Shown: piece after piece, positions 36,967 through 56,612 of the stretch | Layout of the letters: each line of letters starts with the position of its first letter | How positions within the stretch are numbered: the first letter of the stretch is position 1 | From: Candidatus Moranbacteria bacterium GW2011_GWC2_40_12 | GTDB lineage: Bacteria > Patescibacteriota > Minisyncoccia > Moranbacterales > UBA11712 | Direction: 5' to 3' | Assembly (NCBI GenBank): GCA_000995965.1 | Contig: LBYD01000002.1 | Span: forward strand, 135,889 to 199,888 | Length of the DNA stretch: 64,000 bases | Position numbers and translations under genes: made by a program | The notes under the pieces: generated by a model | Seen by the model: the letters and a program-made list of their open reading frames with translations, nothing else | Database searches by the model: none | Told to the model about the DNA's origin: nothing

Positions 36967-37710
36967 TTAGTATGTTTGCTTCTTGACTTCCCTATACCTT
37001 CTCCAAAGCCAGAATCCTAAACTGGCGAGGACAAGAATTATTCCGGCAGCGATGAGAATCCATTTGCCTGGCGCCGTGGAGTTATTTTCCGTGTCAGTTT
37101 GCACGATGCCGGCTTTTTCCATCAAAACCGGATCAAGTTTCGTCTCCCCTTTCACGCAATCCCGGGGGCAATTTTCGCTGTCCTCAATCGGTGTGTCGCA
37201 CTTTCCATTCTCATTGCAGGTGGCTTTGGAAGCGAGATCAATCGTCAAAACCTTTTTCCCGAATGGGTCGTAGATGTCGGCGTATTTCCCGTTGGGGAAA
37301 TATGGCATATCAATAGTGAGCTCTCCTTCAGTAAGATCGCTACACCCGCCGCTTATCTTTTCAGAGGCCATATCAAAGTGATCTTCACAGAGCGTAGAAG
37401 ATAAATTATTGGCTACCGGAAAAAATCCCAGAGAATTCCCCACGAAAGATACGATTACTCCATTGGTTATTTTTCCTTTGTAAGAACTGTAATCTTTGCT
37501 ATATGAACAGCTCCCCAATATAATCTCAAATTTCTTCACCTCAAGCTGCTTTTCATTTTTAAATATACTAACTTTAACTTCTCGTTCTGTTTGATAAGAA
37601 GGTGGAGCAATGTTTTCCGAGACCGCAGATACTCGAATGCTATAAATCAGAAAAAACAGTATGCCCATAGTAATGTCTAAAAAAGCTAAGTCTCTTTGTT
37701 TCAAAGTCAT
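36967..37710 (-). CDS. secreted/membrane-anchored hypothetical protein
   Basis: N-terminal signal/TM, Cys-containing ectodomain (CPRDC), C-terminal TM anchor. Confidence 0.4.
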   Translation of the reverse strand: MTLKQRDLAFLDITMGILFFLIYSIRVSAVSENIAPPSYQTEREVKVSIFKNEKQLEVKKFEIILGSCSYSKDYSSYKGKITNGVIVSFVGNSLGFFPVANNLSSTLCEDHFDMASEKISGGCSDLTEGELTIDMPYFPNGKYADIYDPFGKKVLTIDLASKATCNENGKCDTPIEDSENCPRDCVKGETKLDPVLMEKAGIVQTDTENNSTAPGKWILIAAGIILVLASLGFWLWRRYREVKKQTY

Positions 37711-37749
37711 AAGCGTTACAAAAAATAGCTGTTTCCTCTTGTGTTTAAT

Positions 37750-39474
37750 CTAGTATTCTATAATAATGGTCTCTTTAACTGGTGAGATTAAGTCGCCCAG
37801 CTCATTCCACGGACCTTTAGGCCATTGAATAGCCCAGTATTTTAAGATAAATGTGTTTACAGATCCGAATGTTGCGTTAGAATCACTTTTCATAATACTG
37901 CTACTGGAAGATCTATAAAATTCGGTTGTTGAGTATAAGCATCCGGGGACACATTCTTGGCTTAAATTCCGATTTTTCCATTTAGGACAATTTTTGTCGG
38001 GCGTGCAATTCAAAGTATATCCGAACGAGTTTTGGAAATAATTTCTATAATCTTTCCCTAAATTAGTATATTCGTCATCTAAATGTCCAAAAGAATGACC
38101 TATTTGTTCATGGGAGAAAACATTAGGCTGTATTAGCGCATCTTCGCAATATTGCGCAGACCCATTAATTATGGCTCTTGCTTTTTTGCCCGTCCCCGAA
38201 AAGATATAGCCGTAGCTTGAATATTTTGCTTCCGGGCAGTTTTCATCTTTTTCGTTCACATCTAATATTTTACTGCTCCAATATATCGCAAATTTTGAAT
38301 CAAAATATGGAAGATTTTGCTCGGACTCGTTTTCAGCAATCTGCGCTGCAACTGGTGGTTCGATAATATGGGAACCATCCTCTTCCCAGTCAGATTGTGA
38401 AAACGGACATAGTTTATTTCTGACATTTGTGTCATTGCTTCGAACAAGAATGAAAATAAACTCTGCAGACGGATTGCCGCCAGAAAAGTGACAGGTGTTG
38501 TTTTCGCCACAAGATGTGCAGCCCTCAGTATTAAACGTTGGCTTCCCCGGGACTTGCGCATTCACTTTCGGAATGTTTAAACTATTTCCTAAAAAAGAAA
38601 ATTTATCTTTCGTTTCCGCGCCGGCGGTTTCCGTATTCGGGCACGAATTTATATAAACCTTCGCCTGATTCGAATTTTTTTCCTGATATTTCGCTTCGAC
38701 ATACGGCGGGCTTTCAGATGATGATCCAAGCGAGGTCGTCACGGCCTGAACGAGGCCTTTCGCCACTTTGATTTGCGTTTCGTCGCTGGCTTTCCATTCA
38801 GCTTGCGCCGTTATATTCTCTTCGCTTGTTTCAGTCGAGCCGTCGCTTTTCTGGCAGGTGTATTTTGCGACGGCTTTGAGCTGTTTCGTTTTTCCTTTGT
38901 CGTCTTCAGAAAGCGTATCGAGGACAATATAAAATCCGGTTCCGTCTCCTTCCAGCTTGAAATCTTTTTCGTCGCATTGGATTTTGATTGAATCAAGCTT
39001 CCTGTCTTTCTGGTCGCATTTGGTTTCGGCCTTTTTCTCCCCGTCTTCGCTCGCAGTCTGGCTTTCGTTGCTGGCTATGTCAGCGCTGCCCTGGCAGTCA
39101 AACTGCCACCAGTTGGTGACTTTGTTGTATCCTGTCGCTTTGAGGATCGCGTCGACGACCAGCCAGGAGAAATGATAAAGTAAAAAGCCGGCGAGGACGG
39201 TGATAAACGTTTTTTTTGCGAGCTCCATCAAATTCTTGCTTCCGCTTGAGAACATATACAGTATTCCGGCGATGATGATGAAAACAGTCACGACGGCGAC
39301 AATAATAATCCCGAGATAGTCAAAAATCCTTTTCATGCCCGATATGATGTCGCAGAGATTGCAATTGTCCTTGCAGGGGACAAGTTCGAGCGCATGAGCG
39401 CAAAAAGGCGACGCGAAGATAAGCGCGAAAAAAATCAATAAGAAGATTGTTTTCTTACTCTTGATCTGGCTCAT
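37750..39474 (-). CDS. VirB2/TrbC-like pilin-domain protein with large extracellular C-terminal domain
   Basis: Signal peptide, Cys-rich segment, then two TM helices (IIIVAVVTVFIIIAGILY / FITVLAGFLLYHFSWLVV), followed by a ~450 aa Cys-rich domain that includes SHEQIGHSFGH. Confidence 0.45.
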   Translation of the reverse strand: MSQIKSKKTIFLLIFFALIFASPFCAHALELVPCKDNCNLCDIISGMKRIFDYLGIIIVAVVTVFIIIAGILYMFSSGSKNLMELAKKTFITVLAGFLLYHFSWLVVDAILKATGYNKVTNWWQFDCQGSADIASNESQTASEDGEKKAETKCDQKDRKLDSIKIQCDEKDFKLEGDGTGFYIVLDTLSEDDKGKTKQLKAVAKYTCQKSDGSTETSEENITAQAEWKASDETQIKVAKGLVQAVTTSLGSSSESPPYVEAKYQEKNSNQAKVYINSCPNTETAGAETKDKFSFLGNSLNIPKVNAQVPGKPTFNTEGCTSCGENNTCHFSGGNPSAEFIFILVRSNDTNVRNKLCPFSQSDWEEDGSHIIEPPVAAQIAENESEQNLPYFDSKFAIYWSSKILDVNEKDENCPEAKYSSYGYIFSGTGKKARAIINGSAQYCEDALIQPNVFSHEQIGHSFGHLDDEYTNLGKDYRNYFQNSFGYTLNCTPDKNCPKWKNRNLSQECVPGCLYSTTEFYRSSSSSIMKSDSNATFGSVNTFILKYWAIQWPKGPWNELGDLISPVKETIIIEY

Positions 39475-39485
39475 GAATCAGATAA

Positions 39486-40649
39486 TTATATAGACAGCTT
39501 GTGAAGTTTTCCATCACTCTTTGAGACAAAGAAGAGTGATTTTTCATCCGGGGAAAGGAAAGGGTTGAGGACGTCGTAGGAGCTGCCGATTTTCTCCGGA
39601 TCAACCAGTCTCTCTTTTTTGCCGCTTGTTATGTCGATTTTCCAAAATGTATCTGAAGTCGTGACTTTTCCCTCTTGCCAGTCGTTGGGAAGAATGGCCG
39701 AATCCGGAATATCTCCGGGCATGGCGCAATATAAAGTTTTTGAATCAGACGACCAGGCGCATTTCGCCGCAAAGGTAGGAAAAACCAATGACTGAATCTC
39801 GCCTCCCTGCCGGCTCATAAGGAGAAGATCAATCTTATGGCCCCCTTTTTCATCTGAAGCGCTTAAAGCGGCCTGGTCTCCATTGGGGGACCAAAGAAGG
39901 TCAACTCCATAACGGTCCTTGAAAAGCTCTTTTTGGTTTTCTCCACCGAACGTCACAGAAGCTACAAAAGCAGCGGTAAAGGCATTGGGGCTGGGCCAGA
40001 AAGAAATATCGGATGAGCCTGGGATGGGGGCCATTTCAGCGCTGCGATAGCTCATTTCGGCAACCGTATGCCAGTTTTTGCCATCCGGATCAGCGACATT
40101 TACGGTTCGCTTTTTTGTTTTTGGATCATAGTGTTTATAGATAATCTTGTCTCCAAGATTGGACCAGGAAACTGAGTCAATATTTCCTTTGAGCACGGAC
40201 ACTTTTTTCCCGGAAATGTCAAAATAGAGAAATTTCGCCATGCCCGGCGCGGGTTCTGTTTTGATGATCGCCTTGTTTCTTGGCTTGTTCCAAGTGATTT
40301 TTTTGATATCTTCAAATTTTTCAGTGGAGAGAACCTTTTCCAATTTTCCGGAAAGGTCGAATTGGTTAAGCTGTCCGTTGCTCGCCAAAAAAGCGTAAAG
40401 AAAATTCCCGTCTGGCGAGAGAGTCGCGCCAAAAACGGGCTCATCAGAAATAGCTTGGATGGACGCGTTTTTTTCGGCTGTTTTTCCCGAAGAATCCGTT
40501 GCGTTGAGTTTCCCCTCCTCGCTGATCTTCGCGTTGTCCAAACCCTCCTCCTGGGAAGCCGGTTTTTTGAAAAGAAAATTATAGGCAAAAATGGCCCCAA
40601 TCACGAGCACCAGAAGAAGAGTCGAAATGGCGAATATTTTTTTAGTCAT
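39486..40649 (-). CDS. secreted beta-propeller (TolB/PD40-like) protein
   Basis: N-terminal TM plus repeated ..SPDG..LY.. / WSPNGD.. / LSPDEKSLFF segments. Confidence 0.5.
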   Translation of the reverse strand: MTKKIFAISTLLLVLVIGAIFAYNFLFKKPASQEEGLDNAKISEEGKLNATDSSGKTAEKNASIQAISDEPVFGATLSPDGNFLYAFLASNGQLNQFDLSGKLEKVLSTEKFEDIKKITWNKPRNKAIIKTEPAPGMAKFLYFDISGKKVSVLKGNIDSVSWSNLGDKIIYKHYDPKTKKRTVNVADPDGKNWHTVAEMSYRSAEMAPIPGSSDISFWPSPNAFTAAFVASVTFGGENQKELFKDRYGVDLLWSPNGDQAALSASDEKGGHKIDLLLMSRQGGEIQSLVFPTFAAKCAWSSDSKTLYCAMPGDIPDSAILPNDWQEGKVTTSDTFWKIDITSGKKERLVDPEKIGSSYDVLNPFLSPDEKSLFFVSKSDGKLHKLSI

Positions 40650-40670
40650 ATAGTTGAGAACAAAGCCTTT

Positions 40671-41222
40671 TTATTCATTTTGATAATAATCAATCAGCAA
40701 ATTTCTGATCTCTTCATCGGGATTGCCTAGAATTTTATATTCTTCTCCCGAAGAAGTTTCTTCCGAAAGCAGATAAACTCGGCTACCAGATTTATCATAG
40801 GCGATAACAATTCCCGTCCCGCCGCAATTGTGTTCCGTGCATCCGAATAGAAGGAGGATTTCCCGGCCATCGTTCAGTACGATGTTTGATGCCGGTGTTG
40901 ACACGGCCATTTTAGCGATTGAAAAATCAGACATCAGCTCTTTGGTTTGTCCGACTATGTTCGGGCTGTCCTTCAGAATATCATGGGAATATTGCTCCAA
41001 TCTGTAGGGCTGGTACTTATTTTCCTGTTTCCTTTTTTCCCATTCAGAGGAAAAAGAAGAAGGCGGGAGCGGGATGGGCTGGTCGATTTCTTCCGGAGCC
41101 TTTTTTTCCTCGGGACGATTTGCGTTCTTTTTTGAGATGAAAAAAATCAAAGTCAGCGCAAGGGCGAATATCGTCAAGGAAATAAAAATAATTGAAAAAT
41201 ATTTTTTTGTTGCGCCACTCAT
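40671..41222 (-). CDS. small secreted/membrane-anchored hypothetical protein
   Basis: 183 aa with an N-terminal TM. Confidence 0.4.
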   Translation of the reverse strand: MSGATKKYFSIIFISLTIFALALTLIFFISKKNANRPEEKKAPEEIDQPIPLPPSSFSSEWEKRKQENKYQPYRLEQYSHDILKDSPNIVGQTKELMSDFSIAKMAVSTPASNIVLNDGREILLLFGCTEHNCGGTGIVIAYDKSGSRVYLLSEETSSGEEYKILGNPDEEIRNLLIDYYQNE

Positions 41223-41310
41223 ATTTTTTTAGCGAGGCGATTATACCATTATGGATTATCTTTGGAAAGAGGCGAACAGACGACCGGGAAATTTCCAGTT
41301 TTTTCAGTTT

Positions 41311-42222
41311 CTATTTGACGGTGCACGGTTCATTTTTGTATGATTCGGATTTTCCCATGACACTGGGGATGTATTTTTTGGTTTCGTTGGGCATTGGCTG
41401 TCCCTTTTTGCCTAGTCCTGTTTTCAAAAAAGAATCCATGTTTCCCGTTCCCCAATTGTATGCTCCTAAAGCATTTTCCCAATTGCCGTATTTGCTGTAC
41501 ATCTGGGATAAATATTTGGTTCCTCCCATGATGTTTTGGTATGGATCAGCACTGTTCGTAACGCCAAGCCCGCTGGCTGTTCCTGGCATAAGCTGCATCA
41601 AGCCAAAAGCACCGGCAGGGCTTTTAGCATTGTAAATCCCCATGCTCTCCTGGTCGATAACGGCCTTTATTATGTATTCGGGCACTCCAAATTTTGCGGA
41701 AGCTTCCATGATGATATCGCAATATGAATTTACCCGTTCCTTGACCGATCCTTTGAGAGAAATGGCGTCATATTTTCCGCTAGTCGTTCCTGTCGCTACT
41801 GTCCCCGTTGGCGTTTCCGCGATGTTGATAGTGCAGGGAACTGTTTCGCCGAGGCTCACTTTCACGAGATTGGGGTTGATGGTGTAGAGGATTATCCAGG
41901 AAAGAAGCCCAAGGAAGAGACCCAGTATGGCGTAGTTGACGGTGTTCTTGGCGCTGGTCATCTTGGCCGTGTTTCCGATGGAGACAATATACTGGAAAGC
42001 GCCGATGCCCAGCATGAACATGGTCAGGATTCCGATGGTCGCGTAGCCGAAACAGATGATTTGCTGGATATAAGTGGATATGTCGCAAGTCCTCGAAGTA
42101 GCTCCGGGAATCATCTGCTGATTGGAATAGAGGTTTACTTCCGCGGAGAAAACAGGCCGGAGAATAAAAATACTCACAAAAAAAATAGCGAACGCCAGCA
42201 AAATTGTTTTTTTGTTTTTCAT
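41311..42222 (-). CDS. VirB2/TrbC-like pilin domain fused to SLT-family lytic transglycosylase (VirB1-like)
   Basis: N-terminus IPGATS..CFGYATIGILTMFMLGIGAFQYI..AILGLFLGLLSWIIL is paralogous to 42376-42765. C-terminus ..DQESMGIYNAKSPAGAFGLMQLMPGTA..AYNWG is an SLT domain. Start set at the internal ATG (MKNKKTILLAF). Confidence 0.6.
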   Translation of the reverse strand: MKNKKTILLAFAIFFVSIFILRPVFSAEVNLYSNQQMIPGATSRTCDISTYIQQIICFGYATIGILTMFMLGIGAFQYIVSIGNTAKMTSAKNTVNYAILGLFLGLLSWIILYTINPNLVKVSLGETVPCTINIAETPTGTVATGTTSGKYDAISLKGSVKERVNSYCDIIMEASAKFGVPEYIIKAVIDQESMGIYNAKSPAGAFGLMQLMPGTASGLGVTNSADPYQNIMGGTKYLSQMYSKYGNWENALGAYNWGTGNMDSFLKTGLGKKGQPMPNETKKYIPSVMGKSESYKNEPCTVK

Positions 42223-42375
42223 TTTTCCAATTCCAAAAATGTCTTGAAAAAATTCTTCGATTTCTGGGATAAAATTACCAACCGGTTCCTGATCCTCCTC
42301 CTCCGCTGCCGGTTCCCCCGGCATTTCCCGTGCCGGTACTCCCACTTTGCGAGCCTGGTGGTGAGCTGCTCTGAT

Positions 42376-42765
42376 TTACTGCCCCCCCACAGAGATATTC
42401 TTGAAGGCCACGAGATCAGGATGGATTTTGGAAAGGATTATCCAGGAAAGAAGCCCAAGCACAAGGCCGAAAACGGCCGAACCAATCGTTTCCCGGGCGC
42501 TTTCCGCTTTGCCAATGTTCCCGGCGGCCATCAGATACTGGTAAGCTCCGATACAGAGCATAAACATGGCCAAAATTCCAATCGTCGCGTAGCCGAAACC
42601 GATTATATCTTTGACATACGGAATAAATTCCGATTGCTGACTGGAGGCTCCCGGAATTTTTTCCTGGTTTTGGTACTGATACTGAGCCAGAGCCGATGAT
42701 CCGAAAAGAATAGCAATGCACAAGAAAGCGGAAACATTCAGAAATAATTTTCTAATTATTTTCAT
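42376..42765 (-). CDS. VirB2/TrbC-like pilin
   Basis: 129 aa: signal peptide then IPGASS..IGFGYATIGILAMFMLCIGAYQYL..AVFGLVLGLLSWIIL. Confidence 0.55.
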   Translation of the reverse strand: MKIIRKLFLNVSAFLCIAILFGSSALAQYQYQNQEKIPGASSQQSEFIPYVKDIIGFGYATIGILAMFMLCIGAYQYLMAAGNIGKAESARETIGSAVFGLVLGLLSWIILSKIHPDLVAFKNISVGGQ

Positions 42766-45700
42766 GGCCTGTGAACTTTTGAATTAGGGAATAAAGCCAA
42801 AAACTGGCAAAAAGCATGATAAGAACGGTGAGTGCCAAACGAAGATTATACATTACATAATGCGGCAGGTGGGTTCCGATGGCGGCCAGGAGCTGGGTCG
42901 GTTTACCCGAACTGATTATGTCAGTCACCGGTTCTTCGACGGTCGTGACGGTGATAGAGCGGTCGCTTTCGAGAGGACGCGGGACGATGTCCCAAGCGTT
43001 GAGCATAATATTCACTTCATCTTCTGACCAATATTTTTTCAGGTTGACCGAGATATTCAAGTAGGCGCCAACGCTTTCGGGAGCGACGAAAATCAAATCG
43101 TCTCCTTCAACTGTGAGCACATTGAGGTCTCCGTATGTTTCTTCAAAGCTTTCATCGCTGATGCTCAATCCTCCAAATTGCCAGTCAATGACGGTGTTTT
43201 CGTCTTCCGCGAGAAGATAATAGGGCACAAAATCAAGATAAAGGGAAACATTTGAGCCTGGAAAAGTTTCGAGCATATTGAGATTTTCCACAACCTGGTA
43301 CGAATCCTTTGTTGAGCCGACTTTTACGTTTTCGGACTTGGGCCAGGCAGTAAGTTTGTCTGACGATCGGATGAGCGCTACCGGTTCTACAACCGTGATA
43401 AGCCGGCTAGATTTCACCGGCTCAAGTTTATCCTTTGGAGTCACGGTAACGGAAACCTCTTCAATCTGCTGCTCATTTTTGGTGATCGGGAAAAAAACGG
43501 TAGTGTTTGACCAGCCGTTGAAATATTCGGAAACATTCGTTGGCGTGTTGAGGGGATTTCCGTTCGTCTGCCAGGCAAATTCACTGTTGCTGGTATTGTA
43601 GCGATCACCGGAAATTTTGGCGGCAAGCATCTGGCCTTTGACAGCTGGGCAAAGAGCGGCATAGAGCCCCTCCGTGCAAATTTTGTCGGGGCTGCTGCTT
43701 CCGCTGTCAAAACCGGCTTTTTTGTCAGTGATAACCACTCGATATAGGTCAATTTTAACGCCATCCTTGTTTACGGGAATGATGACGCTCGATCTGCCGC
43801 GATTTGCTTCAACGCCGGAGGTTTGGGCAACCGTGGCCGTGACTTTGAAATAAATGATATTATCTGCGGAAGCCTCCAGAGCCTTTTCCTTTGGAGTGAA
43901 ATTGAAATCGGTCAGTCCCAGTCCGGATGATTTGGAAGTCGTCGTGAAATTGTCGCTGATATCCAGGGCATCCCCCCAAGTGTCGGTTTTTGGGTCTCCC
44001 CTTTGGATTTGCCAGGTATAATAGAGAAAATTTGGATTGAGCTGGGTGTTGTCAAGGGAAGAAGAAACCGAGATTTTGTCAGCGTCAAGAATATTTCCAT
44101 TCTCGTCAATATTTTCAGCGTTTGCATCGCTGGGGTCTGCCACGGGATTGTCGGGAGAAAAAGAAAGGGAAATCTTCAATTTAACATTGCTCTGTTCATT
44201 CGGAGACCTTGTCGCCATAAATCCATAATTGTAATCACCAGAATTGTCGCAAAGGTCGCCGTCCAAAAGCTTGGTTTTTGTCGGATCGCAGACATCGAGA
44301 TAGCCCCACATAATCTTATAATAAGCGTTCTGCTCGTCAGTCGGGATCATGGAGGTTCCTTCAACGATGACTCCGACGCGATCGCCCGGTTGGTAAGTCC
44401 AGGTGAAATCCTGCTGACCGAGGCCAATGACATCGGCTTCGTCATTGAAGCCGTCGCCGTCCGTGTCGGGGTCAATCGGATCGGTTTTCCAGTATTGTTC
44501 TTCGCCAGTCGGAAATTTTCCGGAGCCGCTTTTGTAGCCAGGCGCGTTTTCCCATCGGTGCTTGCAATCCGTGCGGAAGTCCTGTCCTGAGGGATCCCCC
44601 CCGTAATCATTGGACGATCCGGAATATCCCTGATAGCCCAGGGGATCATAACTTGTTCCAAAATTATGTTCGAAGCACCTTGAATAGGAAGTATTGTCGC
44701 CGTATATGTTTCTCGCTTCTGCGGAGCCAACCGTAAAACTGCTTTCGTGGATAGCATCCCACTCTGCAACGCAGGCGCTATATTGGCTGTCGAGGCAACT
44801 TGCGAGCAGGCTTGTGTTTGTCGATTGAAGGGCACTGTAATCATAGCAACTTTCATAGGCTGCATCGTAGGAGCTGGGACAATAATTTGCGGCGCTGTCG
44901 TATTCTGAATAATCCGTATCCTCTGGGGCAGTAACAAGATAACAGCATTGGTTGTTTGAAGACAGAGTTGAGGAAAAAGTGATATTTGCTTGGCAATAGG
45001 TGCAATACTCGCCTGACTGGCTGGGCTGCATGGCGTAATAGCTGTTGAAACTGCTTTTTTCGGTATAAAGATTGCAGCTGCCCACAGAATGAGCCCCTTT
45101 GTCGTTGCAATAACCAGCGGCCGTGTTATAGGGCTCAAAATTATCGCTTTCTTCAGTCAATCCCCCGACACCGTCAGCTCCTCCCATTGGAGCCGCAGTC
45201 CTGCCTTCGTCATAGCTGTCGTCAATTGCCGGCCAGCCATCCCCGTCAGGGTCATCACTGGCGCTAGATGCGTAGTGTTGGCCGTCAAGGATGGGGTCAT
45301 AATCCCCCCGGGACATGATTCTGGCGGCTTCCCTTTTTCCGGAGTCGACTGAATTGGTGGCGGTTTGGGATGTGCCGTCTTCAGTATGGATCAAATACCA
45401 GGTGTAATAGAGATTCTGCGGATCATTCTTGAAAAATTCCGGCATTGCATGAGCCGTCACTTTCTCGCCGGCTTTCGGATTAGTATTGTCGAAAAACAGT
45501 TCCACCTTGGGAGGCGTGGTCTTTCGCTGGGCTGTTCGCCAGACATTTTCATTGATTCCGTACCTATTTTCGGAAGAACTCAGAAAATTTTCCGTGATGT
45601 CATTTGTGCGGGTCAAGGTTTGGTTTATGGCGTTGTTTGTTTCTTCGGCCACGTTGACCGTGCACCCATCCCAGAGAGAGCAGGAAAAAGCCTCGGCTGT

Positions 45701-45814
45701 TTTCGGGCTGAACGAAACAAGATTCAGAAAAATAAAGACAGATGTTGTTATGGTGGAAATTAGTTTTCTGTTTTTTTTCATTTTCATATATTTAAAGCGC
45801 TTAAAAACCTCCAA
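42752..45814 (-). CDS. very large cell-surface protein with thrombospondin-type-3-like Ca-binding repeats
   Basis: 1020 aa with signal peptide, DPDGDGWPAIDD and DPDTDGDGFNDEAD motifs, many Cys/Tyr/Ser, and a C-terminal TM anchor. Confidence 0.6.
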   Translation of the reverse strand: MEVFKRFKYMKMKKNRKLISTITTSVFIFLNLVSFSPKTAEAFSCSLWDGCTVNVAEETNNAINQTLTRTNDITENFLSSSENRYGINENVWRTAQRKTTPPKVELFFDNTNPKAGEKVTAHAMPEFFKNDPQNLYYTWYLIHTEDGTSQTATNSVDSGKREAARIMSRGDYDPILDGQHYASSASDDPDGDGWPAIDDSYDEGRTAAPMGGADGVGGLTEESDNFEPYNTAAGYCNDKGAHSVGSCNLYTEKSSFNSYYAMQPSQSGEYCTYCQANITFSSTLSSNNQCCYLVTAPEDTDYSEYDSAANYCPSSYDAAYESCYDYSALQSTNTSLLASCLDSQYSACVAEWDAIHESSFTVGSAEARNIYGDNTSYSRCFEHNFGTSYDPLGYQGYSGSSNDYGGDPSGQDFRTDCKHRWENAPGYKSGSGKFPTGEEQYWKTDPIDPDTDGDGFNDEADVIGLGQQDFTWTYQPGDRVGVIVEGTSMIPTDEQNAYYKIMWGYLDVCDPTKTKLLDGDLCDNSGDYNYGFMATRSPNEQSNVKLKISLSFSPDNPVADPSDANAENIDENGNILDADKISVSSSLDNTQLNPNFLYYTWQIQRGDPKTDTWGDALDISDNFTTTSKSSGLGLTDFNFTPKEKALEASADNIIYFKVTATVAQTSGVEANRGRSSVIIPVNKDGVKIDLYRVVITDKKAGFDSGSSSPDKICTEGLYAALCPAVKGQMLAAKISGDRYNTSNSEFAWQTNGNPLNTPTNVSEYFNGWSNTTVFFPITKNEQQIEEVSVTVTPKDKLEPVKSSRLITVVEPVALIRSSDKLTAWPKSENVKVGSTKDSYQVVENLNMLETFPGSNVSLYLDFVPYYLLAEDENTVIDWQFGGLSISDESFEETYGDLNVLTVEGDDLIFVAPESVGAYLNISVNLKKYWSEDEVNIMLNAWDIVPRPLESDRSITVTTVEEPVTDIISSGKPTQLLAAIGTHLPHYVMYNLRLALTVLIMLFASFWLYSLIQKFTGHENN

Positions 45815-47148: not shown

Positions 47149-47171
47149 AACTTATGCCAATATTATCTATA

Positions 47172-49143: not shown

Positions 49144-49866
49144 TTAAATGCGGTTTATCTCCAATTTCTCCGCTTCTATTTTTTCCGCTGACTCGGTCAC
49201 TTTCGGATTATAAGCGTTGTAGAAAAGCTCGACTAGCTCTTCCGTCTCAAGCGGAGCGATTTTTATTCCGGTTCCGGAAAGTCCGGCGACAATGTGGTCC
49301 ACTCTCTGCCAAAGCTGGCTCCTATAATTCTCAAACTCCATTTCTCGTTCGATTTTGGCTTGCTTTGGATTAAGGGCTATTTTCAGCTTTTCCAAAAAAC
49401 CGTCTTTTTTTCCTTCTGTCAGGGCGAAGGGAACGACAATATAGAAATTTTTGGCCATAATATTCGAGGTGTTGACCAGGTTTTTGATAAAAGCGTGATA
49501 CTCGCTGATTTGGAAACGGAGCAGGTCATTGGGCTGGGTATGCTCTTTCTCCGAGAGCAGTTCGAGATAGGGATTGATATCCAGCTTCCGGGTGCTGATG
49601 AGTATCTGAAGCGGAAAATCGAGAGAATTCAAGAAGCCCTGGTAGGCGGCGACAATCGCCTCCTGCTCCTGCGTGGCTTTCAGGTCAAAATTTATGGAAG
49701 ATACCATCAAGACCGCTCGGAGCGAATTATTCTTGAGAATAACCACTCCGTCTTTGATTTCAGAAATATCAACAAAATCCTGGGTTGATTTCCCGAGAGC
49801 ATCGTTTTTGGTTAAATTTTTGGAATGTAAGCTTTCCATGATAGAAATGTAAAATGTAAATCTCAA
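49144..49866 (-). CDS. hypothetical protein (T4SS-locus associated)
   Basis: 240 aa with no recognisable motif; sits between the virB4-like and prgI-like genes. Confidence 0.4.
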   Translation of the reverse strand: MRFTFYISIMESLHSKNLTKNDALGKSTQDFVDISEIKDGVVILKNNSLRAVLMVSSINFDLKATQEQEAIVAAYQGFLNSLDFPLQILISTRKLDINPYLELLSEKEHTQPNDLLRFQISEYHAFIKNLVNTSNIMAKNFYIVVPFALTEGKKDGFLEKLKIALNPKQAKIEREMEFENYRSQLWQRVDHIVAGLSGTGIKIAPLETEELVELFYNAYNPKVTESAEKIEAEKLEINRI

Positions 49867-49896: not shown

Positions 49897-50265
49897 TCAT
49901 TTTTCCTTTAGCGTTATAATGCCCTTAGCTATAATATTTGATATTTCAATTAATTCTTGCAGAAGCCACTCTAGTTCTTTTCGGTCGCCTTTTTCAGTGT
50001 CCCGAAGCAGTGTCAACCAAACTTTTGATTCATTCGAAGATTTCAGAGAATGGGTGAAAAAATTAATGAAATCTTTTTTAGAACTCGCCGAGTTTGCTTC
50101 AATATAGTTCGCTAAAATACTTGTCCCGCTTCTCAGAAGCTGTTTTCCCATGACGCCGCATACAGAATCTTTTGGCAGCTTATCTATGAATTTAATAAGT
50201 CTCAAAACCCAATTATATAATCTCTTTTTGAATTCATTTTTAAACTTTGCCTTGTCATTTTGCAT
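49897..50265 (-). CDS. four-helix-bundle protein (23S rRNA intervening-sequence protein family)
   Basis: 122 aa with LRSGTSILANYIEA and KDFINFFTHSLKSSNESKVWL; flanked by AT-rich caaaatg elements. Confidence 0.65.
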   Translation of the reverse strand: MQNDKAKFKNEFKKRLYNWVLRLIKFIDKLPKDSVCGVMGKQLLRSGTSILANYIEANSASSKKDFINFFTHSLKSSNESKVWLTLLRDTEKGDRKELEWLLQELIEISNIIAKGIITLKEK

Positions 50266-50282
50266 TTTTATTTTTCAATTTT

Positions 50283-50699
50283 TCATTTCTTCGTGTCCAG
50301 CACCCACGCGATCCTTTTCAGTTGGCTTTGGCTGGGGATGCGTTTTATCTGCGCCGCGGGAGCGGCCTGTTTTTTCCTGGCCTCGTGGAGAGATTTGGAA
50401 AAGGTCGATTCTTTCGCGTTATACATTCTTCTCCAGACATATTTTTTTGGGCTGGCGAAATACTGGACCATGTATCCGAAAAAAGATAAAAAAGTAATCC
50501 CTTGCGGCCGGTAAAAAGTAAAAGTCCCAAAAATAATAATTACGAAAATGGCAGCGAAAAGGAAAACTTTGCGATCGACGAGGCTATAGAGAATGATGAG
50601 GCAACCAGCCATTCCGCCCATCCACAAAAGCTGCTTCGAGGTGAGCCCGAAAGCAATTTTGTCTTCAATGTCTATGAATTGGGGGACATTTACATGCAT
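50283..50699 (-). CDS. PrgI-like (VirB3 analogue) small membrane protein
   Basis: VPQFIDIEDKIAFGLTSKQLLWMGG plus two TM helices, placed ahead of virB4. Confidence 0.5.
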   Translation of the reverse strand: MHVNVPQFIDIEDKIAFGLTSKQLLWMGGMAGCLIILYSLVDRKVFLFAAIFVIIIFGTFTFYRPQGITFLSFFGYMVQYFASPKKYVWRRMYNAKESTFSKSLHEARKKQAAPAAQIKRIPSQSQLKRIAWVLDTKK

Positions 50700-50705
50700 A
50701 ATATT

Positions 50706-50810: not shown

Positions 50811-50813
50811 ATT

Positions 50814-52271
50814 TTATTCATCTCCGCTCAAATCAACGATATTCCCCTCAACCCTTGGTTCCGGCTTTTCTTCCCTTTGAGGTCCATAATGGGGATAAAA
50901 GATATTTTTTGGACGGCTGGGAGCGTAGGGCTTTAGAGGCTCGGTAGGAGCTAAAGCTTGATTTTGAGGAACCCCGACGTTACGTCGGGGGGGAGAAGTC
51001 GAACCTTGATTAGCAGGTTGAACCTTGGACGATACAGGAGGAACCGAACCTTGATTATCCCTTGAAATCCCCTCCGAAAATCCCTTGAGTTTCACGGGCG
51101 CTTCGCCAGCCACTTCGTGGCTTTCCGGCGCCGGAAAGGGATTTACAAACTGTATCGCTTTGCGAGAATTGGGAATATTTTTTTGAATTGGCCGGGGCAA
51201 AGTTGGCGGTTTTGCTGGAGCAGCGGACCTGTCCGCCGCATTTCCCGCAGGGCGGGATACGGGTGGATAAGGCCTGATGAAGCTGTTTTCAACTGGTTTA
51301 AGGGGAGATGTTGGCCTTGGCACAACTTTCGGGTATGCCCTAATGAATGATTCTTGCGCATGACTTTGGCTTGGGATCGAAGTTCTGCGTTCTGCGTTCT
51401 GCGTTCCTAGATTCTCAAACACCACCTCATTGTTCTCCGTGTCAATCGGAAGCGGCGTGTTTTCGTCAAAGGACTTCAGTATTATACCCAATTTATCCCG
51501 TTCTGACGAGGACAAGTTCTTCGCGTTTTCCGACCGGAAAAGATAATTTGTCCTTTGTATTGAATCGTGAGCCCCTTGCCCGAGAATGGAAGTATAATCA
51601 TAAAGCCAGTTTTTGATCGAAGGCCGGACGGGACGGTCGAAACTTTTGATTTTCAACGGCGACGAGGTAATTCCCTGCTCGCCGATTTTGGGATATTGCT
51701 GGATAGCTTGTTTGATTGTGTATTTTTCCAACTTTTTCGTAGAGGTGGCAGCTTTTTTTCCGAGTGCCGGAAGCATTTCTGCTTTTATTTCTTGCAATGA
51801 TTGGGAAAGATACATCGGAAATTTCATGATATATTCAACTGCTGTGTCATCCAAGTCCACAATCGGTTCGATCAGGAAATAGTCGTAAAGGCGGAAAATC
51901 CGCATAAGCCTGATTTGATCTTTTTCGTTCAATCTTTGAATCTCCGGATTGTTCATTGAATATTCAAGAAAAGTATTTGGCTCCCGGGGAGTCCTCCGTT
52001 GCTTGTCCAGGTATCTCTTGAGCCAAACGTTCACCGGCATTCCTCCAATGTTTTGAGTATTTTTCTTCAAATAGAAATTCAGAAGCCTGATCAAAGATTC
52101 TCTCGCGGAATAATCAACACTGATGAATTTATTCATAACTTCCCACTCCAAATATGTCGGGTCTTCGACTTCAAGAGTCTCCAAAAGATGTCCTTGAAGC
52201 AACAGGCCGCACTCCTGATCGGAAAGTCTCGAAAAATTAGCTAAAGTTTTTTCCATCTTTTCATTGGGCAT
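50814..52271 (-). CDS. hypothetical protein with proline-rich low-complexity C-terminal half
   Basis: 485 aa. C-terminus PRPTSPLKPV..PPVSRPAGN..APAKPPTLPRP. Contains a tgcgttc x3 repeat at 51386-51406. Confidence 0.45.
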   Translation of the reverse strand: MPNEKMEKTLANFSRLSDQECGLLLQGHLLETLEVEDPTYLEWEVMNKFISVDYSARESLIRLLNFYLKKNTQNIGGMPVNVWLKRYLDKQRRTPREPNTFLEYSMNNPEIQRLNEKDQIRLMRIFRLYDYFLIEPIVDLDDTAVEYIMKFPMYLSQSLQEIKAEMLPALGKKAATSTKKLEKYTIKQAIQQYPKIGEQGITSSPLKIKSFDRPVRPSIKNWLYDYTSILGQGAHDSIQRTNYLFRSENAKNLSSSERDKLGIILKSFDENTPLPIDTENNEVVFENLGTQNAERRTSIPSQSHAQESFIRAYPKVVPRPTSPLKPVENSFIRPYPPVSRPAGNAADRSAAPAKPPTLPRPIQKNIPNSRKAIQFVNPFPAPESHEVAGEAPVKLKGFSEGISRDNQGSVPPVSSKVQPANQGSTSPPRRNVGVPQNQALAPTEPLKPYAPSRPKNIFYPHYGPQREEKPEPRVEGNIVDLSGDE

Positions 52272-52297
52272 TTATTCTGGCTTCAACAATAAAATAT

Positions 52298-54457
52298 TTA
52301 ATAATCCATATCATATTCATCCTTGAGTTCTCGATTGCCTTTCCCCTGCCCTTTGCCGCCAGCTTTAGTTTGTTTTTCCTTGTAGACATCAGTAATGAGA
52401 CTCACAAAATGTTCTCTCCCCTGCCCTCTCAAAATTTCAGCGGCATCCATGTTCTTAGTGGGGAAATCAGGTCGGCAACGATTCAGATGCAAGCCATTTG
52501 CATTTTCAATCACATCCATTACTTTTGGTCCGACTAAGCCATTCATGTTTACGGGATTACCTTTCGCGTCAACTTCCAAAGTCGCTTCGGGGTGAATGTT
52601 TATCATCAGGTGCTGTATATTGGCGTTCTTGAGTTTTCCTGCAACATCCTCTGCTTGTTCCCATTCCTCTGTCAATCTCAATGTGCCATCGGCATTTCTT
52701 CTTGTCATTCCATATAAATGATAATCTCCTTTCCCCCAAGCTTGGTCGCTGAATTTTTCCATCTCTTCAAGAGCTGCTTGTTCGTCCATTCCGCTGTTTA
52801 TGAAAAGATCATACATGGCCTTTTTCGCGTTTTCTGAAGACATATGTATGCCAAGCCCCTGTTTAAGCCATTCGTTCCAGTTTCTTCCGTCCTCTAGGAT
52901 TTGAGAATAGGCAACAAGCATTTCTTGGGATTCGCTGTCAGTTCTGCCTTGCAGAGCTTTGATGCCTGCGACGCAAATCTTGTCCGTAGTGCCCATAACT
53001 TCCAATTCTTTTTTACGTCTTGCGATATTTTCCGCGCGCCTCTTCTTTGGATAATAACCAGCCGGCTTCTGGCCTTTTTTGAAGGTTTGACTCAATGTTT
53101 CTTGTGCATCCGCTTGCGCGTCTCCGTATATTTTTTCGTCAATTTCTTTTTTCCTGGTGTCCCAAGCTTGTTTCAAGGCTTTTGGACTAAGAGGTATCTT
53201 CTTCCCTCCGATTGTGATCGATTTCTGCGCCAATTTTCTGTCAGCTGCTTCCCAACCCTTCTTCGCCCCCCATTTCGTTCCCTTCCAGCCTTTTTGCGGG
53301 AAGAATGACATAGCCTTGTTTGCCCGGCTGGTGATGGCGCCGGCGAAAGCAACGCCAAATTTTTGGGAAATGATGAGGCCGGCATAGAGGAAAACAAGGA
53401 CGACGAAATAAGGAACGATAGACACCACAACAAAAGCAAACACGGGATCTGCATTGCTGGATCTTTGGGCTTCCAGTGTCTTGAAAAGGGATGAATCTAG
53501 CAAAAATGTGGAAAGCCAGAGAAAGAAAGCAATGGCCGGGCCGACATAGGAATATTTGAAAAGGGCGTCCCACCAGTCGGAGGACATTTTTTTGAAATCA
53601 GGAATGGCGTTGAACAAGAAAGCGAAAGGAGAGACGATTATCAAGAGCCACAAGGCGATGATACGAATGAGGAGATAGATGGCCATTACAAAAAGAGCGG
53701 TTCCAAACATAAACAAAAAAACAATCGTAAAGAGATATTTCACGGCCAGAGAAAGCCAGCCTTGTCCGTATGAAATAGTGAGCTGCTCGTTGCTCCAGAT
53801 CGTTTTCGCAATCTTTGAAGTATTGGCAATCGTGGTTGCATATGAAGAGCCTCCGCCTGACAGTTTGTTCAGAAAAAAATTCATGAGAAGCTGGGAGCCG
53901 TCGAAAATGAAGATGGCGATGGGCTTGGAAAAATTGACGAGAAGGGCCATCAGGATGAAGGTGAGAAGGATTTTCTTGGCATGATATCTTTCAATTTGGA
54001 GAATAGTGCAAAAAGCGATGAAGAGAAGGATGAGGAGAAAAAAAAGATTGCAGACGTCCCGCACGGCTATCCAACCGGTAGTGATCATTGATTCTCCCGT
54101 GAAATTATACAGGCTGGGGCTGAGCATCGACTCCAAAAAATAGGCGGCAATATTAACGAACAAATAGCAAAAAGACGCGATAATCCATAATACGGCGATA
54201 ATTGGGGCAAAAAAAGCAGTTCCAAGGAAATTCGCAACTTTTTCCCATACCCTTTTTTCTATGTTGGATAACGGGGTGTTGACTTGTGGATCCAGGTCTG
54301 TTCCTTGCGCCAGGCACAATTTTGAAAAGGAAAAAAACATCGTTGAGACTACGATGACAAAGAATAGGAGAAATAATATATTTTTAGAAGTCAGAATGTT
54401 AGCAAATTTTTTTTTGATGATTTTTGACATCAACTGTATATTTCTATTATTCTTCAT
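52298..54457 (-). CDS. VirB6/TrbL-like polytopic membrane protein with Lys-rich cytoplasmic tail
   Basis: 719 aa: signal peptide, about seven TM segments over ~380 aa, then a charged tail; sits in the T4SS-like locus. Confidence 0.4.
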   Translation of the reverse strand: MKNNRNIQLMSKIIKKKFANILTSKNILFLLFFVIVVSTMFFSFSKLCLAQGTDLDPQVNTPLSNIEKRVWEKVANFLGTAFFAPIIAVLWIIASFCYLFVNIAAYFLESMLSPSLYNFTGESMITTGWIAVRDVCNLFFLLILLFIAFCTILQIERYHAKKILLTFILMALLVNFSKPIAIFIFDGSQLLMNFFLNKLSGGGSSYATTIANTSKIAKTIWSNEQLTISYGQGWLSLAVKYLFTIVFLFMFGTALFVMAIYLLIRIIALWLLIIVSPFAFLFNAIPDFKKMSSDWWDALFKYSYVGPAIAFFLWLSTFLLDSSLFKTLEAQRSSNADPVFAFVVVSIVPYFVVLVFLYAGLIISQKFGVAFAGAITSRANKAMSFFPQKGWKGTKWGAKKGWEAADRKLAQKSITIGGKKIPLSPKALKQAWDTRKKEIDEKIYGDAQADAQETLSQTFKKGQKPAGYYPKKRRAENIARRKKELEVMGTTDKICVAGIKALQGRTDSESQEMLVAYSQILEDGRNWNEWLKQGLGIHMSSENAKKAMYDLFINSGMDEQAALEEMEKFSDQAWGKGDYHLYGMTRRNADGTLRLTEEWEQAEDVAGKLKNANIQHLMINIHPEATLEVDAKGNPVNMNGLVGPKVMDVIENANGLHLNRCRPDFPTKNMDAAEILRGQGREHFVSLITDVYKEKQTKAGGKGQGKGNRELKDEYDMDY

Positions 54458-55466
54458 TGAAATAAATGGACTCCCTCATTCCCGATTGGATGTCGCTTTG
54501 GGTCTGGTTGATGCTCGTTCCGACTTTGTTTCGGACATCCGTGATGGATTTGTCAATCGGATCGGTCACTTGGCGGATGCCGTTGCTGATGAGGTTGGTG
54601 AGGGTCTGGGCCACCATGTTGGCGACCACTTCGGGGATAGATCGGGCAAATTCAGTCATTTTCACGCCCATGAGAGAAATTTCTGACGTGATATCTTTCA
54701 TAATCGAACCGGGGAGAGAAGTAAGCCCGTCTTCGGAAACCGATGCGGAGTCTTCCCCTTCCGTTCCGTATCCCCCTGGGCCGTATTTTCCGGCGGCATA
54801 TGAGGAGCTTGAAGATTTTTTCTCTGTTCCGGTGAATCCTTCAAAGGCGATGGCCTTTGTCTCACGAATCTTTTCTTGCGATTCACGGGAAATTTTATCC
54901 AGGGCGGCCGCTCGAAGGAAAAAAGAAGCTTCGGCATTCTGGGGAGCGAAGGCCATTCGGCCAGCCTGCCAGGAACTGGTTGATTTTGTTGGGTCAAATA
55001 TGAAGGCTGCTTTTCCTTCGCTGACATAATTCTGAAGGTCGGATTTTTGTGTTATGGCATCGGCACCCATTGCTTTTTCCGCGTTGTTCACCACCCTCTC
55101 CATTCCTGAGCTGATGCCGCTTCGCATGCCGTTGAAAAAAGTATTGACGGTGTTATCGGCTGTTCTTTGCGCCGAGCCGAATATATAATCCTGCCAGTCG
55201 GTGATGAATCCCGATGAGCCGCCGATGCAATAGGCGCCGCAGGATCCGGTGAGAAGCACTTGGAGCCTTCCCTGGATGACGCGGATAGCCATGATTTTGA
55301 GATTAGCGACCATTGTTTTCTCAATCGTGTCGAGCATATTGGTGAGATTCACTCCTTCGATGGCGGCGGCCAAATTTGTCCCCCAGGCCTCAGCCGAAGC
55401 TCGCTTTGGCGCGAATAAGAAAAGAGTTGAAATAATTAGCAATGTAACAAGGGCTTTCTTTGGCAT
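54447..55466 (-). CDS. secreted hypothetical protein
   Basis: Signal peptide MPKKALVTLLIISTLFLFAPKRASA. Confidence 0.4.
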   Translation of the reverse strand: MPKKALVTLLIISTLFLFAPKRASAEAWGTNLAAAIEGVNLTNMLDTIEKTMVANLKIMAIRVIQGRLQVLLTGSCGAYCIGGSSGFITDWQDYIFGSAQRTADNTVNTFFNGMRSGISSGMERVVNNAEKAMGADAITQKSDLQNYVSEGKAAFIFDPTKSTSSWQAGRMAFAPQNAEASFFLRAAALDKISRESQEKIRETKAIAFEGFTGTEKKSSSSSYAAGKYGPGGYGTEGEDSASVSEDGLTSLPGSIMKDITSEISLMGVKMTEFARSIPEVVANMVAQTLTNLISNGIRQVTDPIDKSITDVRNKVGTSINQTQSDIQSGMRESIYFNEE

Positions 55467-55505
55467 TTTTTTATTTTAGTTTATAAATGGCCTAAAACAA
55501 TTCTC

Positions 55506-56612
55506 CTAGGGGAAATTTATAAGGCTGATTCCATACTGTTCGGCGACTGATTGCATCTCCTGGCCGAGTTTCATGGCCGCATCCCCCACCGCTCGGATTG
55601 AACTGAAAGCAGCCAGGCTTTTCAAGGGGTCATTGGGATCAACAACAGCCTTGTCTTTGAGGTCGAGAGTATATATCGCGAGTTGCAATGCCGACTTGTG
55701 AAGGTCTTCGAGGACATAAGGCACCTCAATTTTTTTGATTTGATCGATTCCGGCGCGGGCTTTTTGGGCGTATTCGTCCACTTTGGCCTTGTTACCGCTG
55801 GTGAGGGCCGTGAGCAAATTTCCCTGCTCTTTTTCAAGACTCGAGACGAGATTTTCCGGCTCATCAATTGAAAAAGGAGAGTTTGAGGCAAAGACAAAAG
55901 CCAGAGACACCAGGTATTTTTCAATTTCTTTTTTCTGCTCCTCCTTCACTTCCTCGGGCTCGAGCCCCTTTTCATCAACGGGCGGCAGAAGCTTGATTTC
56001 ATCTTCCCGAATGGCAGGCAGTTCTTTGGTGATATCAGTAGATCGAAGGGCGTTTTGGGCGACCAATGAAAGGTCATCGGCAGAAAAATTCGGGTTGCTG
56101 GCAAAATCTTCGGAACTCCCGGCTTTGTCTTTGGTCAGGCTCATCAGCTGCCCGATCATCTCATTGGTCAGATTCGGATTTTCAGGGTCAGAGGACAAAT
56201 CGCCCAAAGTGTCATTGGTCAGATTCTGGCTGTTGAGGTCCACAAGGCTGGTTGAGCCGGAAATATTTCTGGGGTCGGAAGCCGTTGACGCCGCAGCTGG
56301 ATTTTGGGTAGCGGCAAGGTCGGCTCCAGCCACGATCTGGTCTCCCGGCGCGGCCTTCAGGGGATTATAGCCGCTTGCCACTTCTTTTCCGTCGGAATAT
56401 CCGTCTTTGTCACTGTCCGCTTTCAGGGGGTCGGTGCCGATCATTCTTTCCTCCTGGTCTGTCAGTCCATCCTGGTCGGAGTCGAGAAAAAGAGAATTTG
56501 CGTTCTTGTTTTCGGCGACGGCAAAAAGCGTCCAGAAAAACACGGTGAAAGTGGCGATTCCCGTTCCGATGATTTTTATCTTATTCACTTTTTTTGCTTC
56601 GCTTGAAAGCAT
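55506..56612 (-). CDS. membrane-anchored protein with Ca-binding TSP3/dockerin-like D-x-D repeats
   Basis: N-terminal TM plus DSDQDGLTDQEE...DSDKDGYSDGKE. Confidence 0.45.
   Translation of the reverse strand: MLSSEAKKVNKIKIIGTGIATFTVFFWTLFAVAENKNANSLFLDSDQDGLTDQEERMIGTDPLKADSDKDGYSDGKEVASGYNPLKAAPGDQIVAGADLAATQNPAAASTASDPRNISGSTSLVDLNSQNLTNDTLGDLSSDPENPNLTNEMIGQLMSLTKDKAGSSEDFASNPNFSADDLSLVAQNALRSTDITKELPAIREDEIKLLPPVDEKGLEPEEVKEEQKKEIEKYLVSLAFVFASNSPFSIDEPENLVSSLEKEQGNLLTALTSGNKAKVDEYAQKARAGIDQIKKIEVPYVLEDLHKSALQLAIYTLDLKDKAVVDPNDPLKSLAAFSSIRAVGDAAMKLGQEMQSVAEQYGISLINFP

Follow-up and report, generated by a model that had tools for sequence, protein, structure and literature searches.

Patescibacteria carry a class of type IV secretion systems (T4SSs) that is known from papers of 2023 to 2025. 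According to the available part of the survey by Quinonero-Coronel et al. (2025; PMC12102498), their VirB4 ATPases form a clade related to MPF-FATA, TrsD is the most abundant accompanying component, and PrgI/VirB3, VirB6 and VirB2-like pilins are encoded near virB4, while a link between VirB1 homologues and virB4 is seen mainly in Paceibacteria. The same part of the survey reports almost no relaxases and places the systems near dnaA, dnaN, rnpA and ksgA, and in the ABY1 class it notes T4SS loci beside comF, recG and radA. A homologous cluster is essential for the epibiotic growth of Southlakia, a member of the Saccharibacteria, as found by transposon sequencing (Tn-seq) (Wang et al., 2023; PMC10633639). 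A 2025 review lists the Patescibacteria systems as new members of the T4SS family (PMC12857230).

A locus of this kind is found in Candidatus Moranbacteria bacterium GW2011_GWC2_40_12, whose genome has been public since 2015. It occupies positions 36967 to 56612 of a stretch of 64,000 nucleotides (assembly GCA_000995965.1, contig LBYD01000002.1, positions 135,889 to 199,888 of the forward strand); this whole 64-kb stretch is referred to below as the window. The locus is very probably a vertically inherited chromosomal T4SS of the Patescibacteria type, derived from monoderm conjugation machinery of the MPF-FATA class, and would most likely serve contact with a host cell, not conjugation. A preliminary description, made from the DNA letters, had read it as an appendage or secretion system rather than a conjugation system in a bacterium from the candidate phyla radiation (CPR); that reading is correct and, as a class, already published. 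The fusions of pilin domains to enzymes, with candidate inhibitors as partners, are the only part that may be new, and are offered as a hypothesis.

Core components of the secretion locus

The locus is made up of 17 tightly spaced open reading frames (ORFs), all on the minus strand, with g01 as the leftmost gene and g17 as the first gene of the operon. Every gene of the window was compared by tblastn and BLASTP with related loci, 80 of them fetched with the VirB4 protein and two by exact look-up, which are labelled L001 and so on. The VirB4 ATPase is g10 (47172-49016), a 614-aa ORF whose public annotation starts six codons in, giving 608 aa; an identical NCBI protein is already annotated as "VirB4 component-like". 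In Pfam it matches PF19044 at 8e-27, together with AAA_10 and DUF87, and it reaches 370 bits, against a cut-off of 325, for NCBIfam NF045971, the "VirB4-like conjugal transfer ATPase, CD1110 family". Its best solved relative is 4AG5, the C-terminal domain of VirB4 from the Gram-positive Thermoanaerobacter (1.5e-49), and the Gram-negative TrwK is matched at 1e-7. Walker A (GAGKS) and Walker B (VVDEAW) motifs are intact in the translation, and hydropathy indicates no transmembrane (TM) helix. The preliminary description had named an FtsK/TraG-like ATPase as the outcome that would speak against VirB4; searches with hidden Markov models (HMMs) gave no match to an FtsK- or VirD4-type family.

Immediately upstream of virB4 lies g11 (49144-49866), which encodes a TrsD-like protein of 240 aa, a stand-alone homologue of the VirB4 N-terminal domain. 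It matches TrsD (NF041427) at 1.6e-10 with 41 bits, below the 200-bit cut-off, as well as the N-terminal ends of VirB4 models, at positions 3-121 of NF045971 and 92-233 of NF045975; the VirB4 ORF itself covers positions 176-733 of NF045971. Orthologues of g11 carry PF26593 TraC-like, and g11 has no match in the PDB. A direct BLASTP comparison of g11 with VirB4 was not significant, and hhalign placed it in register with the VirB4 N-terminus at a weak E value of 0.012; the relation is taken as settled because of the NCBIfam matches. A split or frameshifted VirB4, represented by the 240-aa and 614-aa ORFs, was also considered and is ruled out by the two-gene arrangement, which recurs with the TrsD-like gene in 78 of the 82 loci, and by the length of VirB4, 600-610 aa in all close relatives.

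The remaining core genes encode membrane proteins and one soluble protein. g13 (50283-50699) is a 138-aa PrgI/VirB3-like protein with two TM segments, which matches PF12666 PrgI at 1.3e-12 (48.5 bits, cut-off 27) and is seen in about 70 loci. VirB6/TrbL is represented by g15 (52298-54457), a polytopic protein of 719 aa with about 6-7 TM segments by hydropathy and a hydrophilic C-terminal domain of ~340 aa. It is conserved in more than 50 loci, and 10 of its 40 aligned orthologues match PF04610 TrbL/VirB6 (best 6.7e-10); the L001 orthologue has a weak TrbL_3 match. Searched against the PDB, a profile of the 40 orthologues returned only low-complexity coiled-coil proteins and no TrwI or VirB6. 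Between VirB6 and PrgI, 64-67 of the 82 loci have g14 (50814-52271 here), which encodes a conserved soluble, cytoplasmic protein of 485 aa with a Pro-rich tail and no TM segment; it has no match in Pfam or the PDB, also when searched as a profile of 40 sequences. The stand-alone VirB2-like pilin is g06 (42376-42765), 129 aa with a signal peptide and two hydrophobic helices, which exceeds the PF18895 cut-off (28.0 against 26.6 bits) and weakly matches the Mycoplasma pilin-like family NF045849 of integrative and conjugative elements (ICEs).

These components keep a fixed order among the related Moranbacteria loci, running VirB6, g14, PrgI, TrsD, VirB4, (g09), a CPBP-like protein, an immunoglobulin (Ig)-like protein of ~1000 aa, the pilin gene or genes and a beta-propeller. 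In closer relatives the housekeeping flanks are shared too, with ksgA and ubiA on one side and two Wzy_C genes on the other, and VirB4 identity across relatives is 58-93%. Since order and flanks are retained at such identities, they point to vertical inheritance of a chromosomal system and not to a mobile element. The 25.8-30 kb part of the window contains dnaA, dnaN, rnpA and yidC, and ksgA lies at 58.6 kb, so that the locus adjoins ksgA and lies 8-28 kb from dnaA/dnaN/rnpA. G+C content is 0.43-0.475 over most of the locus and 0.40 in its leftmost bin (36-38 kb), values that do not set it apart from the flanks (0.40-0.46). Pfam scans of ORFs of at least 110 aa found no relaxase, VirD4/type IV coupling protein (T4CP), integrase or reverse transcriptase in the 64 kb.

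Most of what the preliminary description had said of this core holds. Its VirB4-like ATPase, PrgI/VirB3-like gene and minus-strand orientation are borne out directly, the VirB6-like polytopic protein through the orthologues, and the lack of VirD4 and relaxase within the window. With NF045971, PrgI, TrbL/VirB6 (via orthologues) and the pilin g06, the T4SS signature proteins pass HMM tests; together with the lack of DNA-processing genes in the 64 kb and the syntenic chromosomal position, they support an appendage or secretion system. Its CPR assignment was likewise right, for VirB4 and the 1020-aa Ig-repeat protein g07 have counterparts with 100% identity in Candidatus Moranbacteria bacterium GW2011_GWC1_45_18, which supports the assignment of the organism to Candidatus Moranbacteria. 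It had overlooked the TrsD-like gene at 49144-49866, the cytoplasmic g14, the M64-like domain of a 574-aa pilin fusion, an Ivy-like protein and a four-helix-bundle gene, g12; the last three are described below.

Pilin-domain fusions and their neighbours

Three VirB2/TrbC-like pilin-domain genes had been proposed at 37750, 41311 and 42376, and a locally built pilin HMM picks out these three (g02, g05 and g06) and no others in the window. By hydropathy each product has a signal peptide and then a hairpin of two hydrophobic helices with a short polar loop between them. g06 stands alone, and the other two continue into enzyme domains. g05 (41311-42345) is a 344-aa ORF whose C-terminal half is an SLT lytic transglycosylase domain (3.3e-26) with visible ES, GLMQ and AYNWG motifs. 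The mechanical ORF start is probably too long; from the likely start, the ATG at 42222, the protein would have 303 aa and begin with a signal peptide. The lytic transglycosylase noted in the preliminary description is therefore present as a domain but is not a separate gene, being the C-terminal half of the pilin gene at 41311.

Such fusions had been called unusual, which is true of classical T4SSs but not of this clade. Counting the window together with the related loci, 25 of 35 pilin-domain ORFs have a C-terminal extension of at least 100 aa. All 24 of the fusions that were scanned match PF18895; SLT is found in 13 of them and lysozyme-like domains in others. When g05 was searched against 1.84 billion representative proteins, a single alignment covered both the pilin and the SLT domain in about 24 of the best 150 clusters. 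The signal peptide and the two TM helices suggest that the enzyme domains of the pilin fusions would be extracytoplasmic.

Directly after the SLT fusion, in the window as in L003, L004, L083 and L011, comes a gene for an Ivy-like protein, a candidate inhibitor of lysozymes or lytic transglycosylases. Here it is g04 (40671-41222), membrane-anchored and 183 aa long. Its match to PF08816 Ivy stays below the cut-off (19.8 against 21 bits), and five of eight relatives match the family, the best at 2.2e-5. In the PDB the top four matches are all Ivy, and the segment GCTEHNCGG aligns on the inhibitory CKPHDC loop (4PS6, 1UUZ). L011 and L023 have lost the His of this CxxHxC loop. For Ivy proteins, inhibition of lytic transglycosylases has been shown in vitro (PMC10139938). 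According to the same source, only certain Gram-negative bacteria encode lysozyme inhibitors of this kind, whereas the Ivy-like g04 sits in a monoderm CPR bacterium.

The second fusion, g02 (37750-39474), is a 574-aa protein in which the pilin domain (PF18895 25.8 bits, TrbC 22 bits) is followed by an Ig-like (Big_2-like) region and an M64-like zinc metalloprotease domain. M64 peptidases are marked by an HExxH...DEY zinc site; g02 carries the motif HEQIGHSFGHLDDEY, and HEQIGHxxxxLxDEY is conserved in its family. g02 itself does not match PF09471 (M64), and six of its 19 homologues do, with a best value of 3.5e-5; these 19 are the only homologues among 5.8 billion proteins. The AlphaFold2 (AF2) model has a mean predicted local distance difference test (pLDDT) score of 51, with a helical hairpin at residues 38-114 (pLDDT 62-73), and a Foldseek search of the PDB with it returned only noise (E of at least 1). 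Because this model is too poor, the M64 assignment rests on the motif and the homologue matches.

g02 is paired with g01 (36967-37710), which encodes 247 aa with a signal sequence, a Cys-rich ectodomain and a C-terminal TM segment. In six of six further loci a g01 homologue with 41-55% identity adjoins the g02 homologue. The third gene of this group is an AAA_14/DUF4143 ATPase at 35583-36833 on the minus strand (PF13173 3e-35, PF13635 8e-21), just outside the locus as first delimited, and it adjoins the g02-g01 pair in L086, L087 and L088. Relative to L001, L003, L004, L007 and L011, the ~4 kb at ~35430-39490 are an insertion: in those loci the propeller gene abuts Wzy_C with nothing between. 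Around the insertion, repeat searches gave chance-level matches only. The same module lies next to ruvA in L084 and L087, and at the operon end of L083 (11957-13015) an M64-like protease, an IS110 transposase and the partner gene occur together. The left end is a separate and patchily distributed module (pilin-Ig-M64-like protease, 247-aa partner and AAA_14 ATPase) appended to the operon, whose end is a variable spot.

Surface proteins, variable genes and surroundings

Several further genes encode predicted surface or membrane proteins. The largest is g07 (42752-45814), a surface protein of 1020 aa with a signal, a Cys-rich region, TSP3-like Asp loops, an Ig-like array and a C-terminal TM anchor. 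Its AF2 model (mean pLDDT 70.8) contains about five Ig-like beta-sandwich domains and in Foldseek matches only generic tandem Ig, cadherin and FN3 arrays. One Asp loop, DTDGDGxxD, is invariant, and one further TSP3-like loop is nearly so. There is no Pfam match. Only 149 homologues were found, those with names being mostly from Moranbacteria, and a few of them match PF02412; among the related loci g07 is found in 56-61. The preliminary description had called it a TSP3-repeat protein and a Ca-binding giant. The two TSP3-like loops stand, but the protein is otherwise a chain of Ig-like domains, and the second label was overstated for a 1020-aa Ig-repeat protein with two Asp loops. Its claim of another D-x-D Ca-binding protein fits the first gene of the operon, g17 (55506-56612), which encodes 368 aa with one N-terminal hydrophobic segment (an anchor or signal) and bacterial TSP3 Ca-binding repeats (PF18884 TSP3_bac, 6.9e-11; 42.2 bits, cut-off 25); homologues occupy the same position in 15 related loci. 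Beside it, g16 (54447-55466) encodes a 339-aa secreted or anchored protein with an N-terminal signal-like segment, without a match in Pfam, NCBIfam or the PDB, and is found only in closer relatives.

The proposed PD40 propeller is g03 (39486-40649), an anchored beta-propeller (PD40/WD-like) of 387 aa. The matches are of propeller type but weak in sequence (PD40 and NUP159), with PDB matches to designed six-blade and Kelch propellers; in L001, L003, L004 and L007 the operon ends with this gene. The proposed CPBP-like protease is more doubtful. g08 (45801-46481) encodes a multi-TM, distantly CPBP/Rce1-like protein of 226 aa that is present in 58-59 loci and reaches 21.3 bits for PF02517, short of the cut-off of 22.4. 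CPBP/Rce1 proteins are marked by the motifs EExxxR, FxxxH and HxxxN/D. Of these only ExxxR is conserved in g08, and no histidine is conserved across 59 aligned sequences; lacking the catalytic histidines, it is probably not a canonical protease. Its neighbour g09 (46519-47148) encodes 209 aa with a hydrophilic N-terminus and three C-terminal TM helices, is weakly conserved and has homologues in 16-18 loci. In the searches made, no homologue of known function was found for g14, g16, g09 or g01.

Between prgI and trsD lies g12 (49897-50265), a 122-aa four-helix-bundle protein of the 23S rRNA-IVP/TIGR02436 type (PF05635 3e-18; TIGR02436 79.8 bits, cut-off 24). It amounts to a ~330-bp presence/absence difference from L001, L003 and L004, and it is absent from most other loci. 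It is present in L030 and in L007, there with 87% aa identity, which is above that of neighbouring genes, and a copy with 42% identity lies elsewhere in the L004 locus. The gene is probably a variable insertion and not a part of the T4SS. As an Avd-like protein, g12 was also considered as a mark of a diversity-generating retroelement, an idea rejected for the absence of a reverse transcriptase among ORFs of at least 110 aa in the window.

Scans of the window for tRNAs and Rfam families gave no matches. A promoter and terminator scan marked no operon boundary; its sites were scattered over both strands and mostly intragenic, and the counts exceeded the shuffle means (44 against 25.3, standard deviation 4.3; 38 against 25.6, standard deviation 5.8). 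Beside ksgA, at 60436-62105, lie genes for a TrmB regulator and for a wall hydrolase of the G5/DUF348/DPBB (YabE/RpfB-like) type. TrmB, a DPBB_1 protein, ksgA and ubiA are also clustered in the distant locus L002, and the grouping looks like housekeeping synteny outside the T4SS. At the far left of the window (128-12074, minus strand) six tandem paralogous genes of ~480-515 aa are interleaved with the riboflavin genes ribH, ribE and ribF; their only recognisable part is a C-terminal 72-aa mobile domain of PEP-utilising enzymes, and the N-terminal regions of ~400 aa are without a family match. In one 259-aa ORF among them (3706-4485, minus strand) a riboflavin kinase domain is joined to a PD-(D/E)XK nuclease domain (PDDEXK_3), either an odd pairing or two merged genes. 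On the plus strand, at 13595-23036, an ATP-grasp cluster comprises 7TM_transglut, ATPgrasp_ST with a Zn_protease domain, two RimK-like genes, ATP-grasp_3, a MATCAP-like carboxypeptidase and an 853-aa ATP-grasp and Mur-ligase protein (cyanophycin-synthetase-like). The cluster looks like a system for modifying peptides or polyamino acids.

Function of the locus and comparison with known systems

In T4SSs of the VirB/Trw type, VirB4 is held at the membrane by VirB3 and VirB6. On this pattern, VirB4 would here form an inner-membrane platform with TrsD, PrgI/VirB3 and VirB6, and would pull pilin subunits out of the membrane into a polymer serving as a pilus or as a conduit across the cell wall. Tethered by a pilin-like hairpin of its own, the SLT domain would open the peptidoglycan, and the adjacent Ivy-like protein may restrain it. 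The anchored Ig-repeat protein g07, the TSP3 protein g17 and the propeller g03 would probably form the surface or adhesion part. The system as a whole would move proteins or other molecules at host-cell contact, rather than plasmid or ICE DNA. A role in host contact is the most likely one because no relaxase, coupling protein or integrase lies nearby and the housekeeping synteny is conserved.

Several points weigh against this assignment of class and role. The VirB6 candidate g15 itself matches no Pfam family, g02 and g05 (25.8 and 24.2 bits) fall just below the PF18895 cut-off, and no VirB8-like protein is recognised in the locus. L088 has a pilin-SLT fusion without an Ivy-like gene. The lack of relaxase and VirD4 covers the 64-kb window, and distant copies may lie in the rest of the genome; the available part of the survey reports that T4CP homologues are common in Patescibacteria, far from virB4 (PMC12102498). 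The essentiality data, finally, come from one Saccharibacterium, outside the Moranbacteria lineage.

Other functions have to be weighed against host contact. It is highly improbable that the locus is an ICE of the monoderm MPF-FATA type, remnant or active, which moves DNA between cells. VirB4 does pass the NCBIfam equivalog cut-off of the conjugative CD1110 family, TrsD and PrgI are parts of Gram-positive conjugation systems, and L083 has its IS110 transposase at the operon end, but relaxase, T4CP and integrase are missing from the 64 kb and flanking repeats were not found either, the chromosomal neighbours stay the same across relatives over the full range of VirB4 divergence, and the G+C content does not stand out. 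The absence of relaxase and T4CP would also suit an uptake system, and VirB4 weakly matches the DNA-import ATPase CedB (3.7e-15). A machine importing DNA or nucleotides, like the archaeal Ced or Helicobacter ComB T4SS, could feed an organism unable to make nucleotides, and the ABY1-class loci beside comF, recG and radA, in the available part of the survey (PMC12102498), accord with this. The CedB match, however, is far weaker than those to conjugative VirB4 families, and no competence or recombination genes flank the locus. In Southlakia, moreover, loss of comEC abolishes competence and not viability, while the T4SS is essential (PMC12857230), and import appears improbable.

The enzyme fusions invite another reading, which we regard as unlikely: a contact-dependent attack or feeding device whose pilin-like hairpins deliver or anchor the SLT muramidase and the M64-like protease at the host envelope, with g04 and g01 providing self-protection. 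Consistent with it, the C-terminal enzyme domains would be outside the cell, the catalytic motifs of g02 and g05 are intact, and fusions dominate the pilin-domain genes of the clade. The constant pairing of g02 with g01, the position of the Ivy-like gene with its CxxHxC loop directly behind the SLT fusion, and the inhibition of lytic transglycosylases by Ivy (PMC10139938) argue in the same direction. Yet the SLT domain could simply be the VirB1 of the system and cut the producer's own wall, the Ivy match is below the Pfam cut-off and L088 lacks the gene, no inhibitor fold can be recognised in g01, the model of g02 is poor, and an exit of the fusions from the membrane is hypothetical. A broader form of the idea is a long shot: the Moranbacteria VirB2-like hairpin would have become an all-purpose module for setting lytic transglycosylase, lysozyme-like, M64-like protease and NlpC/P60 domains on or along the T4SS pilus, with cognate inhibitors encoded beside them (the Ivy-like g04; g01), making an enzyme-armed pilus that breaches the host envelope. 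If true, this would be a mode of delivery not described for any T4SS.

Host contact being preferred, the locus can be set beside the known systems. It resembles the monoderm MPF-FATA systems (C. difficile CTn2/CD1110, TrsD/TrsE of pGO1, PrgI/PrgJ of pCF10, the Mycoplasma ICE) in a VirB4 above the CD1110 cut-off, in its TrsD and PrgI homologues and in a weak pilin-like match to the Mbov_0395 family of the Mycoplasma ICE. Unlike these systems, it has no relaxase, T4CP or integrase, occupies a fixed chromosomal position, has prominent VirB2-like pilins and lacks an adhesin of a known family such as PrgB, the model of g07 matching generic Ig arrays only. The X-T4SS of Xanthomonas, a diderm, bacteria-killing VirB/D4 system, has peptidoglycan-hydrolase effectors with immunity proteins; its soluble effectors are marked by a secretion signal at the C-terminus, which VirD4 recognises. 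By analogy only, the present locus is similar in encoding muramidase and protease domains together with small membrane or secreted neighbours, possibly inhibitors; its enzymes, however, are fused to pilin-like hairpins and no VirD4 lies nearby. To our knowledge, no T4SS other than that of the Patescibacteria is known to be essential to the organism that carries it.

The closest likeness is to the Patescibacteria systems themselves. As in the available part of the survey (PMC12102498), an MPF-FATA-like VirB4 has TrsD adjacent and PrgI/VirB3, VirB6 and VirB2-like pilins nearby, a VirB1-type muramidase is encoded near virB4 (there noted for Paceibacteria), no relaxase or T4CP is close, and dnaA, dnaN, rnpA and ksgA are in the neighbourhood. 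That part of the survey makes no mention that we found of pilin-SLT or pilin-M64-like fusions, an Ivy-like neighbour, a ~1000-aa Ig-repeat protein, a CPBP-like protein or g14. As far as the compared sequences go, the pilin fusions, the Ivy-like neighbour, g07, g08 and g14 are Moranbacteria-specific accessories. The cluster of Southlakia epibionticum (SEML1_0006-0019) has the same local order, PrgI - SEML1_0009 - SEML1_0008, where SEML1_0008 is a putative VirB4 of ~613 aa with the structural match e4ag6 (PMC10633639); the hypothetical SEML1_0009 is read here as TrsD-like. It also has a VirB6/TrbL-like protein and, within the cluster, PF18895 pilins, and it lacks a coupling protein and a relaxase (PMC10633639). 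It differs in having six short pilins in tandem, as well as an NTF2-like (VirB8-like) protein; in the present locus a single short pilin is accompanied by two pilin domains fused to enzymes, and no VirB8-like protein is recognised. The basic picture of the Patescibacteria T4SS is unchanged by the locus, which is a clean example from the Moranbacteria; g14, the Ig-repeat g07 and the CPBP-like g08 belong to its defined conserved core. Its two enzyme-partner pairs, pilin-SLT with the Ivy-like protein and pilin-M64-like protease with g01, hint at how the machine may act on the host surface, and a host-contact role would match that of the homologous Saccharibacteria system, essential for epibiotic growth.

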